A DNA stretch of 64,000 bases, from contig QZKQ01000071.1 of the NCBI GenBank assembly GCA_003599535.1, positions 4,454-68,453 of the forward strand, written 5' to 3'. Within the stretch, counting starts at the first letter, position 1, and every line of letters starts with the position of its first letter. The position numbers and the translations under genes were made by a program. The DNA comes from Candidatus Zixiibacteriota bacterium. Its GTDB lineage: Bacteria > Electryoneota > B3-LCP. Below are positions 4,279 through 56,946 of this stretch, piece after piece. The notes beneath the pieces were generated by a model that saw only the letters and a program-made list of their open reading frames with translations, did not search any database and was not told the DNA's origin.

Positions 4279-4743
4279 ATGAAGAATTCCCAAATTGTCA
4301 AGACCGTCATGGACCATCTCGAATCGGACGATCCGGAGCGAGCGCGCAAGTTCCTCGCCCCCGACTTCCACTTCGAAGGGTCCGTGACCCGACCCCTGAA
4401 CCTCGACCAGATGCTGGAGATCGTCACCGCCATCATGAAGGCCTTTCCCGACTGGAGCATGCAGTTTTCCCTGCTCCACGAGGACGGCGAAGTGGTGCGG
4501 GGGATGGTCGAACCGCAGGGCACACACACGGGAGATGATTTACGCTTGCCGGGCATCGCGCCGATCCCGGCCACCGGCATCTCGGTCATTCTGGCCCGGA
4601 CGCCGATCCAATTCCTGGTCCGTGAAGGGAAAATTACGCAGATCCGCCTGGAGGCGGGGTCCAGCGCCGGCATTCCCGCAATTCTGGAACAACTGGGGCT
4701 GGAACCGGAGGCCATTTTACCGCAACTGCTGGAAGAAGAATGA
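4279..4743 (+). CDS. SnoaL-like protein, copy 4
   Basis: ESDDP, AFPDW, GTHTG, PIPATG, LEQLG. Confidence 0.85.
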   Translation: MKNSQIVKTVMDHLESDDPERARKFLAPDFHFEGSVTRPLNLDQMLEIVTAIMKAFPDWSMQFSLLHEDGEVVRGMVEPQGTHTGDDLRLPGIAPIPATGISVILARTPIQFLVREGKITQIRLEAGSSAGIPAILEQLGLEPEAILPQLLEEE

Positions 4744-36015: not shown

Positions 36016-36089
36016 TGGCTGGGAGACAGGGATTCGAACCCCGATTCTATGGTCCAGAGCCATATGTCCTGCCGTTGGACGATCTCCCA
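36016..36089 (-). tRNA. tRNA-Gln(CTG)
   Basis: TGGGAGA...TCTCCCAGCCA; anticodon arm TATGG-CTCTGGA-CCATA; GGTTCGAATCC. Confidence 0.97.
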
Positions 36090-53406: not shown

Positions 53407-54558
53407 CTATTTCAGTTGCAACCCCAGCACCAGGCCGTACGTCTCCTGTTTGTCCAGAGGATTGTCATGTGCGGCACTCAGCTGGGCGTAGTCGAAGCGG
53501 TACCAGAAGTCCAGGCCGGGAGTAGAAAAGTCCGCTCCCAGGGAGAAACCCTGCGAGCTGGGGTTCCGGTCTCCGAGGATGTCATAGTAGGTCCCCGAGC
53601 GGACCGCCGCTCGCAGGAGCAGATCGGGGGTAGCCCGCAGCTTCCCCCAGGCTTCCATCCCCACGTGCCGGATGATGCCGTCCTTTTCGTTCTGGGGATC
53701 ATCGTCGCTCCAGGCGGTAAACAGCGCCTGGTAGAACGGCCTCGGGCTCCGGTCCTCGCGCAGATCCACCAGTTCCTTGTCAAATTCGGCGTTCACCACC
53801 CAGCCCATGATGAAGGGTTCGGCTTCCAGGTTGGCCCCGGCCAGGCCGGCTAACGCCGCGAACACGTCGCAGGAGAGGCCCAGGCGAAGATTCTGGGGCA
53901 GCGGTTTCTCCGGCCCTATTCCGTAGTCCAGGGAGGGACCAATATTGGTCAGGGTGGCGCCCAGCCCCAGGCCCTGCATCCAGCCCGGCCGGTAGAGAGC
54001 GCCCAGGTCCGCGGCCCATCCCTGGCTGGTTTTGTTTCCTGCAGTGCTCTGGGGGGACAGGTGGCTGCCGAGGTATTTGAAGGCCAGGCCCACCCCCAAA
54101 TCCGGGTGGACGCGGGCGCCGCCGGCGACCGCCGCGGCCAGCTCATAGCTGTGAAAGGTGCCAGCAGGATTGTTGTTCTCGTTCCGGCTTTCGGTCGTGC
54201 CGTAACTGGTGTAGATGAAATGTCCGCCCAACGTCGCACCCCAGGCCGGTACGGGGTAGACGGCCGCGGCGTAGCGGTGGTACAGGTCGGGCAGGTTAAA
54301 CGACGGCAGCAGGTCGGTATTGGCGTAATAGCCTTCGATCCGCGTCTGGAATCCCAGCGCGCCGGGGTTCCACCAGACGGCGGCGGGGTTGTCCCATCGC
54401 GCCACTCCGGTTTCGCCCATGCCCGCCGAGACCGCATCAGGGACCAGCTTCAGGAAGATCGCCCCCGCTTCGCTGGGGCCGTCCGCCCGGGCGGTGCCCG
54501 CCAGCGCGCCGGCCAGCAGCATAACCCCCAACCCTCGCCGTACCATCTCCACCTCCAT
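53407..54558 (-). CDS. PorV/PorQ family T9SS outer-membrane protein
   Basis: FLKLVPDA..GMGE, WWNPGALG, DLGALY, NIGP, LPQNLRLG. Confidence 0.88.
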   Translation of the reverse strand: MEVEMVRRGLGVMLLAGALAGTARADGPSEAGAIFLKLVPDAVSAGMGETGVARWDNPAAVWWNPGALGFQTRIEGYYANTDLLPSFNLPDLYHRYAAAVYPVPAWGATLGGHFIYTSYGTTESRNENNNPAGTFHSYELAAAVAGGARVHPDLGVGLAFKYLGSHLSPQSTAGNKTSQGWAADLGALYRPGWMQGLGLGATLTNIGPSLDYGIGPEKPLPQNLRLGLSCDVFAALAGLAGANLEAEPFIMGWVVNAEFDKELVDLREDRSPRPFYQALFTAWSDDDPQNEKDGIIRHVGMEAWGKLRATPDLLLRAAVRSGTYYDILGDRNPSSQGFSLGADFSTPGLDFWYRFDYAQLSAAHDNPLDKQETYGLVLGLQLK

Positions 54559-54723
54559 GGATAAAAACCGGTTATCAATGATATTTCAATATAATCCCCG
54601 CCGGCGTGGAAGTCAAGATGAAATCAGGCTAATTCGGCACGAGGTTCAAAGCGTTGATGGTTCCCCAATTAAAAAATCCCAAAGCCGGTTGGCGATGGGA
54701 TTAAATGTCCTTGGGAGATGGCT

Positions 54724-54927
54724 CTACGCGAAATGCGCCACCGCCTCGTTCAGTTCGCGCAGCAGGGCGTCCTTGTCGGCGACCTGGGAGCGGTCCATGG
54801 CTTCGCCCAGAGTGCCCCACACCGGTTCGCCGCACTGGATGCAGACCACGCCCCAGCGTACCAGCAGCGGCACGGTCTGGGGGAATTCCTGCACCAGGTC
54901 CTCCATGCTGATATCCAGGGTGATCAC
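54724..54927 (-). CDS. DUF1858 domain protein (CxxC)
   Basis: GTG start after GGAGG; ITLDISMEDLV.EFP...GVVCIQCGE...TLGEA...LLRELN. Confidence 0.8.
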   Translation of the reverse strand: MITLDISMEDLVQEFPQTVPLLVRWGVVCIQCGEPVWGTLGEAMDRSQVADKDALLRELNEAVAHFA

Positions 54928-55175
54928 AGGTCCTCCGGAAGATCCATTAACGGCAGGTTCAGGCGCGCCAGCAGGCGCTTTTGCATTTCCCCCGGCACGT
55001 GGGCGCAGGGGATGGAACGGTATATTTCCACGGTGCGCCGGACGCTGTCCAACTGCAGGGTGCAGTCGGGGCAGCTTTCCAGGTGCTCCTTCAGCTCGGT
55101 GCAGACGGGCGAATTCAGGTCTTCGCCCAGGGCCGTGCACAGCCTCTCCATAAAAGCCCGGCATTTGTCTTGCAT
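54924..55175 (-). CDS. Soluble zinc-binding anti-sigma factor (zf-HC2)
   Basis: HLESCPDC plus three more Cys; no TM helix; follows the ECF gene. Confidence 0.85.
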   Translation of the reverse strand: MQDKCRAFMERLCTALGEDLNSPVCTELKEHLESCPDCTLQLDSVRRTVEIYRSIPCAHVPGEMQKRLLARLNLPLMDLPEDL

Positions 55176-55181
55176 GGCGAT

Positions 55182-55808
55182 CTATCCTACTCGCTTCTGG
55201 GACGACTTCTGATCGGCGGCTTCGCGCGCCTCGATGAATTCCGCCAGGTGATCGCGCAGGGCGGTGCGGCCGCGGTGCAGGGCCGCCTTGACCGCGGGCA
55301 CGGTGGTGTTCATGGTCTGGGCGATTTCCTGCAGGGACAGGCCTTCGATATCTTTCAGGACGAAGGGAACGCGCCAGGAATCGGGCAGTTGGGCCATGGC
55401 GCGTTCCAGCGCGTCCTTGAATTCCGTATCGAGCAACAGTTCCAGGGGGTCGCGGTCCAGGGATTTCAGCATCCGGGCGTAGCGGGAGGTCTCCTCGTCG
55501 TCCCCCTCCTCTTCCATGGGCACCAGGCGCCCTTTGCGCTGGCGCAGCATCATCAGGGCGGCGTTGGTGGCGATGCGGTAGATCCAGGTGCCCAGCGCGG
55601 AGTCGAGGCGGAAGGTGTCCAGTTTTTCGAAGACCTTGAGGAAGGTCTCCTGCAGGACGCATTCCGCCCTCTCCGGATTGCCCGTCAGCTTCAAGGCCAG
55701 GTTGTAAACCAGATCCTGGTGCCGCAGCACGATCTCCGTGCGGGCGCGCACGTCGCCGTCCAGCGCGCGCTGCACCATTTCCTTTTCCGGCAGGGGTTGC
55801 AGGGTCAT
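55182..55808 (-). CDS. ECF RNA polymerase sigma factor
   Basis: AECVLQETFL, TWIYRIATNAALM, LSLQEIA...VPAVKAALHRGR. Confidence 0.92.
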   Translation of the reverse strand: MTLQPLPEKEMVQRALDGDVRARTEIVLRHQDLVYNLALKLTGNPERAECVLQETFLKVFEKLDTFRLDSALGTWIYRIATNAALMMLRQRKGRLVPMEEEGDDEETSRYARMLKSLDRDPLELLLDTEFKDALERAMAQLPDSWRVPFVLKDIEGLSLQEIAQTMNTTVPAVKAALHRGRTALRDHLAEFIEAREAADQKSSQKRVG

Positions 55809-55836
55809 CCCAGGCGTTTCCTTGCGCTTGGAGGTC

Positions 55837-56178
55837 TTACACTTTCTGTATGGGGGCCAGGTGGGGCTTCAGGCCCTGTTCCAGCATGGGGCGGGGCAGC
55901 GCGCCGATCCACTGGCCCACCGGCTTGCCGTTCTTGAACAGCAGCAGGGTGGGGATGCCGGTGATGCCGAAGCGGGCGGCCACGGCCGGATTTTCGTCCA
56001 CGTTCACCTTGCCCACGGTCAACTGGCCGGCGTAATCCTGGGCCAGGCCGGACAGCACCGGGGCGATGATGCGGCAGGGGGCGCACCAGGGCGCCCAGAA
56101 ATCCACCAGCACGGGCGTGGCGCTCTGCGTGATCTGTTCGTCAAAAGTGGCGTCGGTCAGGGTGATTTCGTGTTCCAT
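55837..56178 (-). CDS. trxA: Thioredoxin
   Basis: VLVDFWAPWCAPC, GIPTLLLFKNG. Confidence 0.95.
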   Translation of the reverse strand: MEHEITLTDATFDEQITQSATPVLVDFWAPWCAPCRIIAPVLSGLAQDYAGQLTVGKVNVDENPAVAARFGITGIPTLLLFKNGKPVGQWIGALPRPMLEQGLKPHLAPIQKV

Positions 56179-56202
56179 CAGTCCCTCATGGTTGCAACAG
56201 TC

Positions 56203-56406
56203 TTACGGGGTTGGCGGTCCGGCCGGCGGTTCCGGCGTACCGGTGGTCTGTTCGGTGCGCGGAGTCTGGGCCCGATCCTCGGGCCCGCAGGCGCCCGACA
56301 TTCACGTCGGCACGCCCAGCCGGGGCAACACCCAGCGGGACAGGGTGAACCAGGCGACGAATATCAGGATGATCAGAATGGCATCCATACCGTTTCGCTT
56401 TCTCAT
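56203..56406 (-). CDS. Candidate small membrane selenoprotein (UxxxC); absent from the ORF track
   Basis: MRKRNGMDAILIILIFVAWFTLSRWVLPRLGVPT-TGA(56302-56304)-MSGACGPED...TP-TAA; AAGGA RBS; SECIS-like hairpin; alternative start at 56388. Confidence 0.7.
56268..56286 (-). promoter_or_regulatory. Candidate bacterial SECIS element
   Basis: GGGCCCGA-GGA-TCGGGCCC; G-first loop 23 nt after the UGA. Confidence 0.55.
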
Positions 56407-56686
56407 AAGTATCCTTCGGTTCAACTCCGGATGGTGCGCTCCGGGTCCCGCCGGGGGCCGCCCCGACCTCCACGGCATTTCATGGAATTAGATGCAGGAA
56501 GGGCGCGGAGGATGCGCGGGGGATCCGGGTATCAGCAGAGCGTCGGCATAATACTTGACTCATGCCCCTTCAGTGCTTATACTCTAAAAGCGATTTCTGC
56601 TTTGGATCATGCAACTGGATGATCAGCGGAATGGAGTGACTTCTGATATTGTCATACGATGAATATGCCAGGAAAGGTGTTGTTAG

Positions 56687-56815
56687 ATGCCGGTAATTTT
56701 CTCCCACATCGGGGCCCATGAGGTGTACGTACTGACGGATCCCGGGGATCTCTACTTCGCCCGGTTGACGGCGGGTTCATCCACCGCCACGCAGAAGTTG
56801 CTGCTGGTGAAGTAA
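56687..56815 (+). pseudogene. Orphan remnant of a T9SS C-terminal domain (42 aa)
   Basis: GAHEV...GDLYFARLTAGSSTATQKLLLVK resembles the CTD at the end of 31964-33550. Confidence 0.6.
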
Positions 56816-56837
56816 TCGCCCTCGGGATACAACACCA

Positions 56838-56861
56838 AAGCCCCCTCACCTGAGGGGGCTT
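56838..56861. terminator. Intrinsic terminator
   Basis: AAGCCCCCTCA-CC-TGAGGGGGCTT. Confidence 0.75.
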
Positions 56862-56946
56862 CTTAGTTTATCGGCGTTGACGGACGCGAGGTCCTTTGCC
56901 TTTGCAGATCGCGATGAGCCGACAGCCAACGACCGACGACTAACGA

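Follow-up and report, generated by a model that had tools for sequence, protein, structure and literature searches.

The SigR-RsrA pair of Streptomyces coelicolor and the SigH-RshA pairs of Mycobacterium and Corynebacterium represent ECF12, a thiol-oxidative stress switch among the extracytoplasmic function (ECF) sigma factors. Here we describe a five-gene locus that resembles these switches, located in a 64,000-nucleotide stretch of DNA (hereafter, the window) from a Candidatus Zixiibacteriota bacterium (GTDB lineage Bacteria; Electryoneota; B3-LCP; positions 4,454 to 68,453 of contig QZKQ01000071.1, assembly GCA_003599535.1). The locus encodes, in order, a small selenocysteine (Sec)-containing peptide, a thioredoxin (Trx), an ECF sigma factor, a zinc-associated anti-sigma (ZAS) factor, and a protein resembling the DUF1858 family. 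Like SigR-RsrA and SigH-RshA, it pairs an ECF sigma factor with a short, soluble ZAS protein (PMC3177212). The ZAS protein likewise has an N-terminal cysteine about 26 residues ahead of an H-x3-C-x2-C motif, and the locus appears to follow the same logic, in which a thioredoxin under sigma control provides negative feedback and the operon is autoregulated. We modestly favor the interpretation that this is an autoregulated thiol-redox stress operon governed by an ECF sigma factor and a soluble RsrA-like anti-sigma factor and reset by its own Trx, with the selenopeptide acting as a Trx-reducible redox partner of the ZAS protein.

All five genes are on the minus strand. The selenopeptide gene spans 56203-56478 when read as its longest open reading frame (ORF), and it is followed by trx (55837-56178), the sigma gene (55182-55808), the ZAS gene (54924-55175), and the DUF1858-like gene (54724-54927), whose GTG start overlaps the ZAS stop by 4 nt. 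When we reread every ORF on the minus strand of 54500-56800, the successive intergenic gaps were 24, 28, 6, and -4 nt, just as a first-pass annotation of this DNA had described for five tightly spaced genes. An ECF-type promoter (56488-56515, minus strand) is the sole conserved block upstream of the operon in nine genomes, and a terminator-like hairpin with a U run (54675-54702, minus strand) lies 22 nt past the DUF1858 stop. This hairpin has a fold energy of -23.5 kcal/mol (z -2.72); it is unlisted by a simple terminator scan because its loop exceeds that rule's limit, and the same scan listed no terminator-like sites on the minus strand inside the operon. In tblastn searches with the window's proteins, the order peptide-trx-sigma-ZAS-DUF1858 was kept in 8 of 8 relatives of the same family (f1). 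Together, the single conserved promoter, the tight spacing, the terminator, and the conserved order support the conclusion that the five genes behave as one unit. Outside those genomes, the full order occurs in only one public named record (L042, labeled candidate division LCP-89), whose Trx, ZAS, and DUF1858 proteins align as identical to those of genome G002. Long ORFs in alternative frames over the operon (e.g., 54724-55662, 312 amino acids [aa]) were rejected as GC-rich artifacts, the region being explained by the five family-supported genes.

Among the five proteins, only the sigma factor lacks a redox-type motif; the others carry U-x4-C, WCAPC, HxxxCxxC with additional cysteines, and CxxC, respectively. 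The first-pass annotation had the Trx and DUF1858 motifs right, but it had given the peptide's as UxxxC, whereas the actual residues are U-M-S-G-A-C. For the ZAS protein it was correct about HxxxCxxC (H31, C35, and C38) and undercounted the further cysteines, of which there are four (C5, C13, C25, and C56) and not three.

The first gene has a 61-codon coding sequence at 56203-56388 (minus strand), counted from ATG 56388 and ending in a TAA at 56203-56205; 56406 and 56478 are other possible starts. The product has a predicted N-terminal transmembrane helix, then WVLPRLGVPT-U-MSGAC, and then a polar tail, with the Sec position specified by an in-frame TGA (56302-56304, minus strand) that is conserved at the aligned position. 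We examined 41 genomes, the window's own and 40 relatives, with a stop-tolerant search and found exactly one in-frame TGA at this position in 18 of them, with Sec-peptide counts by family of 8/8 (f1), 4/4 (f2), 1/2 (f5), 3/8 (f6), and 1/1 (f7). Matches at E ≤ 1 were obtained in 27 of the 41 genomes; the remainder of these had E > 0.01 and were treated as chance. The frame stays open for 20 to 46 codons past the TGA in all 18 genomes. Their consensus joins a hydrophobic helix to the motif W-[VI]-L-P-[RK]-x-G-[VI]-x-[TS]-U-x-S-x-x-C, in which the +5 cysteine is present in 17 of the 18 sequences while other downstream codons vary.

Downstream of the TGA lies a hairpin resembling a bacterial Sec insertion sequence (SECIS), with an 8-bp stem and a GGA apex, 16 to 34 nt after the UGA (56268-56286, minus strand). 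Its location fits the position rule for bacterial SECIS elements. We tested a user-defined helix, which pairs columns 19-26 of the 60-nt stretch following the TGA with columns 30-37 and has GGA at its apex, in an alignment that kept all 18 rows, so that about five sequences with the hairpin in another register counted as broken. Even so, 70.1% of cells were paired compared to 53.6% in shuffles, and the covariation score was 0.418 compared to 0.171; neither value was reached in 500 shuffles (0/500 each), and all slid registers of the helix were at most 44.4% paired. Minimum-free-energy folds contained a hairpin centered approximately 24 to 30 nt after the UGA in 16 of the 18 sequences, and RNAalifold predicted no pairs when given the raw MAFFT alignment of the same 60-nt stretch. 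The window's genome encodes selA, selB, selD, and tRNA-Sec, all scoring above curated cut-offs. Given the conserved TGA, the covarying hairpin, the cysteine-containing homologs described below, and the Sec machinery, the earlier proposal of a selenoprotein gene holds: on sequence grounds, the first gene encodes a genuine selenoprotein. The window's genome (G000) carries duplicated full-length copies of several Sec genes, with two each of selA (contigs C12 and C2), selB (C31 and C79), and tRNA-Sec (C49 and C95), which could reflect either a real second Sec system or redundancy of the metagenome-assembled genome, whose contamination is given as 1.05%. The selD gene (C49:23609-24535) has an in-frame TGA itself and lies about 340 nt from one of the tRNA-Sec genes.

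An exhaustive profile search with the peptide returned 1491 representatives at E ≤ 1e-3, 57 of them at E ≤ 1e-10, so that the family comprises at least 1491 clusters at 50% identity. In the best 150 of these representatives, the Sec position is occupied by the first cysteine of C-x4-C in 108 and by tryptophan in 20 (the TGA read as Trp by the gene caller), while 7 end exactly there and 15 are other or unparsed. The Cys relatives continue past the Sec position with the same M-S-G-x-C. Homologs are named "hypothetical protein" in their sources, and the ESM Atlas likewise yielded only an unnamed "hypothetical protein" cluster (0.87). No Pfam-A or NCBIfam model matched the peptide part of the window's protein or of ten Cys homologs, a single-sequence word-index search with the peptide gave no match, and a literature search with the core peptide word returned nothing related. 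The string UxxxxC is absent from the table passages of a 2026 review of prokaryotic selenoproteomes (PMC13188914). The peptide family is thus apparently a selenoprotein family that has so far gone uncatalogued.

Two natural fusions of the peptide to Trx, P0113 (208 aa) and P0129 (171 aa), came from the exhaustive search, and both have an intact C-x4-C; a separate search for longer fused forms found none, which is weak evidence. The Trx active sites of these fusions are WCGPC and WCSPC, and the C-terminal part of P0113 looks out of frame. The homologs are also informative about the start and orientation of the peptide. Among the 117 of 150 that could be parsed, Cys homologs begin 1 to 3 residues before the helix, usually with M-x-D (median N-terminal tail, 2 residues), and the flanks carry mean charges of -0.34 (N side) and +1.13 (C side). 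Since Cys homologs start at the equivalent M-x-D, ATG 56388 is the likely true start of the selenopeptide (or else 56406). Because of the short acidic start and the basic C-terminal flank, the product is probably a single-pass membrane peptide with its N terminus outside and its C terminus inside, which would place the U-x4-C pair just inside the membrane.

The ZAS protein (83 aa) is short and soluble and contains the arrangement C5-x25-H31-x3-C35-x2-C38 in addition to C13, C25, and C56. Within the family, C5, C13, C25, H31, C35, and C38 are invariant and C56 is not. The C5-x25-H31-x3-C35-x2-C38 arrangement is invariant in 21 of 21 ZAS proteins from three phyla, which align end to end with that of the window. 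The only NCBIfam family to match the window's ZAS at E ≤ 0.001 was TIGR03988 (antisig_RsrA), and no other family matched every one of the 21 peptide-linked ZAS proteins, as this one did. The proposal of an RsrA-type anti-sigma factor is consistent with these matches, with the window's score falling under the equivalog cut-off, and we regard it as supported, from sequence comparison, that the protein is RsrA-like, though not an RsrA ortholog. Its ligand spacing matches that of RsrA (numbering in part from PMC3177212), and by analogy C5, H31, C35, and C38 would be the zinc ligands. The AlphaFold2 (AF2) model has four helices (pLDDT 73.1, pTM 0.37). Foldseek found no match for this model, and VIA-align placed the anti-sigma factor RsiW (5wuq_C) at rank 10 (Z 4.0, rmsd 9.0) among unrelated helical proteins; by sequence, RsiW matched at E 0.057.

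The second gene encodes a thioredoxin (TIGR01068, 119.1 bits versus a cut-off of 96.8). Its active site in close relatives reads WC[A/M/G/Q]PC, with a variable residue that is unusual for a housekeeping thioredoxin, and a separate WCGPC Trx is present on contig C74 of the window's genome. Judged by its domains, the sigma factor is of the ECF (group 4) type, because sigma regions 2 and 4 are the only sigma domains matched (Sigma70_r2, 58.9 bits; Sigma70_r4_2, 52.5 bits; TIGR02937, 99.3 versus a cut-off of 42.9) and its length is 208 aa. As expected for an ECF factor with a cognate anti-sigma factor next door, the ZAS gene begins 6 nt downstream of the sigma gene.

The last protein (67 aa) matched PF08984 at 22.4 (cut-off, 32.2) and TIGR03980 at 29.9 (cut-off, 44.95), both below cut-off. 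Its AF2 model (pLDDT 89.2) has as its best Protein Data Bank match 2K53, a solved member of the DUF1858 family (TM score 0.76, probability 0.99, rmsd 2.7 over 64 columns, Foldseek E 0.17; by sequence, E 0.011), so that the predicted structure has the DUF1858 fold. All eight of the DUF1858-like sequences compared share C-I-x-C-G-E-P-x-W-G-T, with its CxxC. Catalogued Sec forms of DUF1858 carry CxxU (PMC9312934, PMC13188914), and since the CxxC of this protein aligns with that motif, it points to a redox dithiol rather than a cluster site, contrary to the metal/Fe-S effector initially suggested. As a further CxxC protein, whose translation is coupled to that of the ZAS protein, it would act as a redox accessory.

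The promoter consists of a -35 block, GCATCCTC (family consensus GAATCCTT), an 11-nt spacer, and a -10 block, TGCATCTAA; it can also be written GAATCC-N13-TGCATCTAA, with GAATCC and GCATCTAA as its two blocks. Alignment of the upstream regions of nine of nine genomes gave G[AC]ATCCTT-N11-TGCATC[TC]AA and nothing else in common. This pattern resembles the promoters of sigma-E-type ECF factors. The GCATC-N16-CATCTA element reported earlier at 56515-56489 is exact, and its recurrence is far above chance: with at most one mismatch, five relatives contained 12 matches to the pattern compared to 0 for a backwards control. Five of these 12 are the operon promoters themselves, four precede the FmdB ortholog, and one each precedes the cytochrome ortholog, a P-type ATPase gene, and mutS. 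The latter two are one-mismatch sites, before a heavy-metal P-type ATPase gene with a GMTCASC motif (L132, G006:C27) and before mutS (L130, G002:C2), and they may be lineage specific or due to chance.

In the window's own genome, allowing at most two mismatches and an 11-nt spacer, we found five sites compared to 0 in the reversed genome. Besides the operon itself, these lie upstream of a gene for a 634-aa multiheme cytochrome (C15), upstream of an FmdB-type Zn-ribbon gene followed by a rubrerythrin-like gene (C22), at the start of a SPOR gene that precedes DsbD-like, cupin, and Trx genes (C74), and upstream of genes for a 1-Cys peroxiredoxin and a small helix-turn-helix protein (C75). With at most three mismatches there were 7 real matches compared to 3 in the reversed genome and 1 to 5 in five simulated genomes, and the two additional sites, one on C1 within a RelA/SpoT-like ORF and one on C65 ahead of nifS, were set aside as being at chance level. 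Presumably it is the operon's own sigma factor that uses this motif. Catalogs of selenoproteins include both FmdB (UxxU) and DUF1858 (CxxU) (PMC9312934, PMC13188914), which marks the Cys motifs of the FmdB-type and DUF1858-like proteins as redox active.

We next consider whether the peptide accompanies such modules elsewhere. Scanning species-representative genomes with a 10-row alignment, we obtained 80 loci with Cys-type peptides; since a Cys codon was obligatory in one of the two patterns used, Sec forms are undersampled among them. Neighbors were counted by clustering all nearby ORFs, and ZAS counts also drew on a ZAS alignment. The loci are mostly from Planctomycetota, with others from Desulfobacterota, Acidobacteriota, Spirochaetota, Armatimonadota, and Verrucomicrobiota. 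In 17 of the 80, the peptide is next to a short, RsrA-like ZAS. The first-pass annotation had named a complete lack of co-occurrence between the small ORF and the module as a point against its proposal; the two do co-occur in the 8 of 8 same-family genomes, and the ORF occurs with parts of the module in these loci. The short ZAS is directly upstream of the peptide in 14 of the 80; nine of the 14, all from Planctomycetota, have no sigma gene detected within approximately 4 kb, and two (L051 and L088) read trx-sigma-ZAS-peptide. The order peptide-sigma-ZAS occurs in two loci (2/80, Desulfobacteraceae) and the full five-gene order in one (1/80, L042). Trx is adjacent to the peptide in 9 of the 80 loci.

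The commonest neighbors of the Cys-type peptides overall are rhodanese-DUF2892 or short DUF2892 proteins (24/80), ArsR (19/80), TauE (8/80), and cytochrome-bd-like proteins (8/80); a protein combining metallo-beta-lactamase and rhodanese domains and a flavoprotein resembling sulfide:quinone oxidoreductase (SQR) are also among the neighbors, with no locus count made. Because of these neighbors, we infer that the wider role of the peptide family is in membrane-side thiol or sulfur chemistry and that the sigma module recruited the peptide several times. In eight Planctomycetota loci (L047, L056, L059, L083, L086, L089, L090, and L100), the ZAS-peptide pair is followed by a conserved fusion of a cytochrome-bd-subunit-I-like domain to a c-type cytochrome (Cyt_bd_oxida_I plus Cytochrome_CBB3 in L100), a neighborhood that suggests a possible connection with the quinone pool; six of these (L047, L056, L083, L086, L089, and L100) also have a short DUF2892 gene beside the pair. 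Three other Planctomycetota loci (L072, L105, and L117) have trx-ZAS-peptide-DUF2892 with a second set, trx-ZAS-sigma, about 1 kb away. These two trx-ZAS sets within 2.5 kb look like a duplicated anti-sigma module of which only one copy has kept the peptide.

By analogy with SigR-RsrA, the reduced ZAS protein would hold the sigma factor, and oxidation or another modification of its cysteines would set the sigma factor free. Free sigma factor could then direct transcription of its own five-gene operon together with the FmdB/rubrerythrin-like genes, the multiheme cytochrome, the 1-Cys peroxiredoxin, and the DsbD/Trx cluster, after which the operon-encoded Trx would re-reduce the switch. The Trx-reset, autoregulated loop that was first suggested for this locus fits both the gene set and the predicted regulon. 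Within this scheme the selenopeptide may serve as a membrane-side sensor or relay that passes oxidizing equivalents to the ZAS cysteines, and the DUF1858-like protein may contribute a further CxxC. A direct partnership of this kind with the ZAS protein is, in our estimate, the likeliest single role for the peptide, at somewhat less than an even chance. We favor it because the peptide-ZAS pairing recurs even where no sigma gene is nearby, and it draws on the linkage to ZAS in three phyla and on the two natural Trx fusions. The signal could be either oxidants, which are favored by the presence of a peroxiredoxin and a rubrerythrin-like protein in the window's regulon, or reactive sulfur, which is favored by the wider contexts of the peptide family.

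Several of our observations weigh against this scheme. In nine genomes from other families of the phylum, tblastn found the selenopeptide without any of its four partners within 1.5 kb, and in approximately 60 of the 80 Cys-type loci neither ZAS nor Trx stands beside the peptide, which argues that the peptide's basic function is independent of the sigma module. The ZAS protein scores below curated cut-offs, at 22.0 versus 22.2 for zf-HC2 (PF13490) and 37.2 versus 62.5 for TIGR03988 (E 2.3e-9, residues 4-73), and the sigma factor is no SigR/SigH ortholog (TIGR02947, 93.8 versus a cut-off of 251.55). Four residues of RsrA (E39, E40, L45, and E46) have been described as redox determinants, defined in actinomycetes only, and the corresponding stretch of the window's ZAS, H-L-E-S-C-P-D-C-T-L, keeps just one of the four, the first Glu, as these residues are given in PMC3177212. 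In addition, the C74 promoter site is at or within the start of the SPOR-domain ORF, and the SECIS-like hairpin folds no better in single sequences than in shuffled ones (z-scores from -2.17 to +1.72). The peptide could therefore be a plain effector, and the signal could be a sulfur species rather than oxidants.

If the peptide is only an effector, then sigma, ZAS, and Trx would form a self-contained switch, and the peptide would be a Trx-dependent membrane selenol/thiol reductase or peroxidase with no part in signaling, acting for example on lipid hydroperoxides or quinone-derived oxidants at the inner membrane face. The peptide does come first in a sigma-dependent operon, the usual place for an effector, and the remainder of the predicted regulon (peroxiredoxin, rubrerythrin-like protein, and DsbD/Trx) consists of effectors. 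The natural fusions to Trx would suit such an enzyme as well, as would the peptide's occurrence with no sigma or ZAS gene nearby in nine phylum relatives and most of the 80 Cys-type loci. Nevertheless, we consider this explanation rather unlikely, given that the peptide's linkage to the module persists across three gene orders and three phyla and that, in the nine Planctomycetota loci where the peptide follows ZAS and no sigma gene was found within approximately 4 kb, the two look like a ZAS-peptide pair rather than the product of a sigma regulon. A distinctly unlikely alternative is that reactive sulfur, reactive selenium, or a thiophilic metal serves as the signal in place of oxidants; the peptide would then act at the membrane as a carrier or buffer of sulfane sulfur, selenium, or metal, and the ZAS protein would answer persulfidation or metal exchange. 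Rhodanese-, ArsR-, and TauE-type neighbors match known sulfide and persulfide response clusters of the BigR, SqrR, and CstR types. Such neighbors, including rhodanese-DUF2892/YgaP-like proteins (24/80) and ArsR (19/80) as the commonest, TauE (8/80), and the metallo-beta-lactamase-rhodanese and SQR-like proteins, are what commends this alternative, along with the promoter motif before the heavy-metal P-type ATPase gene in one relative (L132). That site, however, has one mismatch and occurs in a single genome, and sulfur genes of this sort are absent from the window's operon and from its predicted regulon, which has the peroxiredoxin and the rubrerythrin-like protein instead.

The peptide could also face the periplasm, with its N terminus in and C terminus out, and be part of a DsbD-fed thiol-disulfide pathway of the envelope that is unrelated to the cytoplasmic ZAS and Trx. 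A start at ATG 56406 or 56478 would give a strongly basic N terminus (MRKRNG...) that favors this orientation, and a DsbD-like gene does carry the promoter motif. We find this improbable, since in Cys homologs the helix is preceded by just 1 to 3 residues, including an acidic one, and its C-terminal flank is basic, and since Trx, ZAS, the sigma factor, and the DUF1858-like protein all appear, by reading, to lack signal peptides. Finally, were the TGA a true stop, the gene would encode a membrane micropeptide of 28 to 58 aa, and what is conserved downstream would be just an RNA element, for instance an attenuator. In favor of this reading are the nucleotide-level conservation of the GAGGAUCG block and the 7 of 150 database entries that end at the TGA position, a truncation made by gene callers. 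Set against this are the open frame of 20 to 46 codons in 18 of 18 genomes, the +5 cysteine, which 17 of 18 sequences retain despite differences in other downstream codons, the Cys that 108 of 150 relatives have in place of the TGA, with M-S-G-x-C again after it, and a hairpin position fitting bacterial SECIS elements in a genome with Sec machinery. We therefore regard a true stop as highly improbable.

Returning to the sensor/relay interpretation, we can also put forward a more specific version of it, which is speculative and which we think unlikely to hold in full. The selenopeptide and the short ZAS protein might form an anti-sigma sensor split into two pieces, in which the peptide is the first to detect oxidants close to the membrane (from quinone, lipid-peroxide, or polysulfide chemistry, for example) and oxidizes the ZAS protein by selenenyl-sulfide exchange, with Trx resetting both; Cys pairs of this kind would then be widespread in Planctomycetota and Desulfobacterota. 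If so, bacteria would have a relay in the manner of a peroxidase that is based on selenium and acts on a sigma factor.

The genes flanking the operon are unrelated to it, with a PorV-like gene downstream and a DUF3108 gene and a sugar transferase gene upstream. The spacer between the DUF3108 gene and the operon (56479-56946) is unusually long at approximately 470 bp and comparatively AT rich. It contains the upstream gene's terminator hairpin (56862-56837) and the ECF promoter, with no Rfam match and no convincing ORF. An Rfam scan of the window found no families in the operon and only two tRNA genes elsewhere (RF00005, minus strand, 1686-1757 and 36019-36089; 61.8 and 59.2 bits).

Our literature searches found no description of an arrangement combining a selenoprotein, an anti-sigma factor, thioredoxin, and an ECF sigma factor. 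This agrees with the first-pass impression that the arrangement was undescribed, the supplements of the ECF and selenoproteome surveys being outside the scope of these searches. In the paper reclassifying the ECF factors (PMC7826278), the main text makes no mention of thioredoxin, selenocysteine, or DUF1858. Compared with SigR-RsrA, the locus differs in having trx inside the sigma operon, together with the selenopeptide and the DUF1858-like gene, and in having a sigma factor and a ZAS protein that fall under the curated SigH and RsrA cut-offs, the latter with one of the four redox-determinant residues. It also has C13 and C25 as extra conserved cysteines, different promoter words, and an uncultured phylum as its host.

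Under the relay interpretation, the locus would further resemble a system outside of the sigma factors. In the Orp1/Gpx3-Yap1 thiol-peroxidase relays, a reactive Cys protein is oxidized first and then oxidizes the regulator, and thioredoxin resets the system. Here, too, a reactive Sec/Cys protein would come first and a less reactive regulator second, with Trx resetting both, although sequence and fold are unrelated, the candidate relay is a 61-aa membrane peptide, and the target is an anti-sigma factor. If this interpretation is correct, a soluble ZAS protein could read events at the membrane, and selenocysteine would have a signaling role in bacteria. The linkage to RsrA-like anti-sigma factors and Trx in three phyla, the two Trx fusions, and the sulfur-stress contexts provide the first functional handles for the peptide family, and the promoter motif and target genes define a predicted regulon, ready for testing, of an ECF sigma factor from a phylum without cultured members.

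In its general design, the selenopeptide is reminiscent of the eukaryotic SelS and SelK, which have a single-pass anchor, a flexible cytosolic segment, and a Sec-Cys pair proposed to form a selenosulfide (PMC3628699). The sequences are unrelated, however, and whereas Sec in SelS and SelK is at the extreme C terminus and is decoded with a SECIS element in the 3' untranslated region, here it is next to the membrane, with the hairpin within the coding region. Like catalogued prokaryotic selenoprotein families, the peptide has a Sec/Cys pair in a redox motif (PMC13188914, PMC9312934), but unlike them, neither it nor its Cys homologs have an NCBIfam or Pfam model. Set beside these known systems, the ECF/ZAS/Trx logic of the locus is familiar. 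What is new is the composition of the operon, with trx inside, the selenopeptide first, and a DUF1858-like gene added; the peptide family and its Sec forms; the pairing of peptide and ZAS across phyla; and a defined promoter and predicted regulon for an uncultured lineage.

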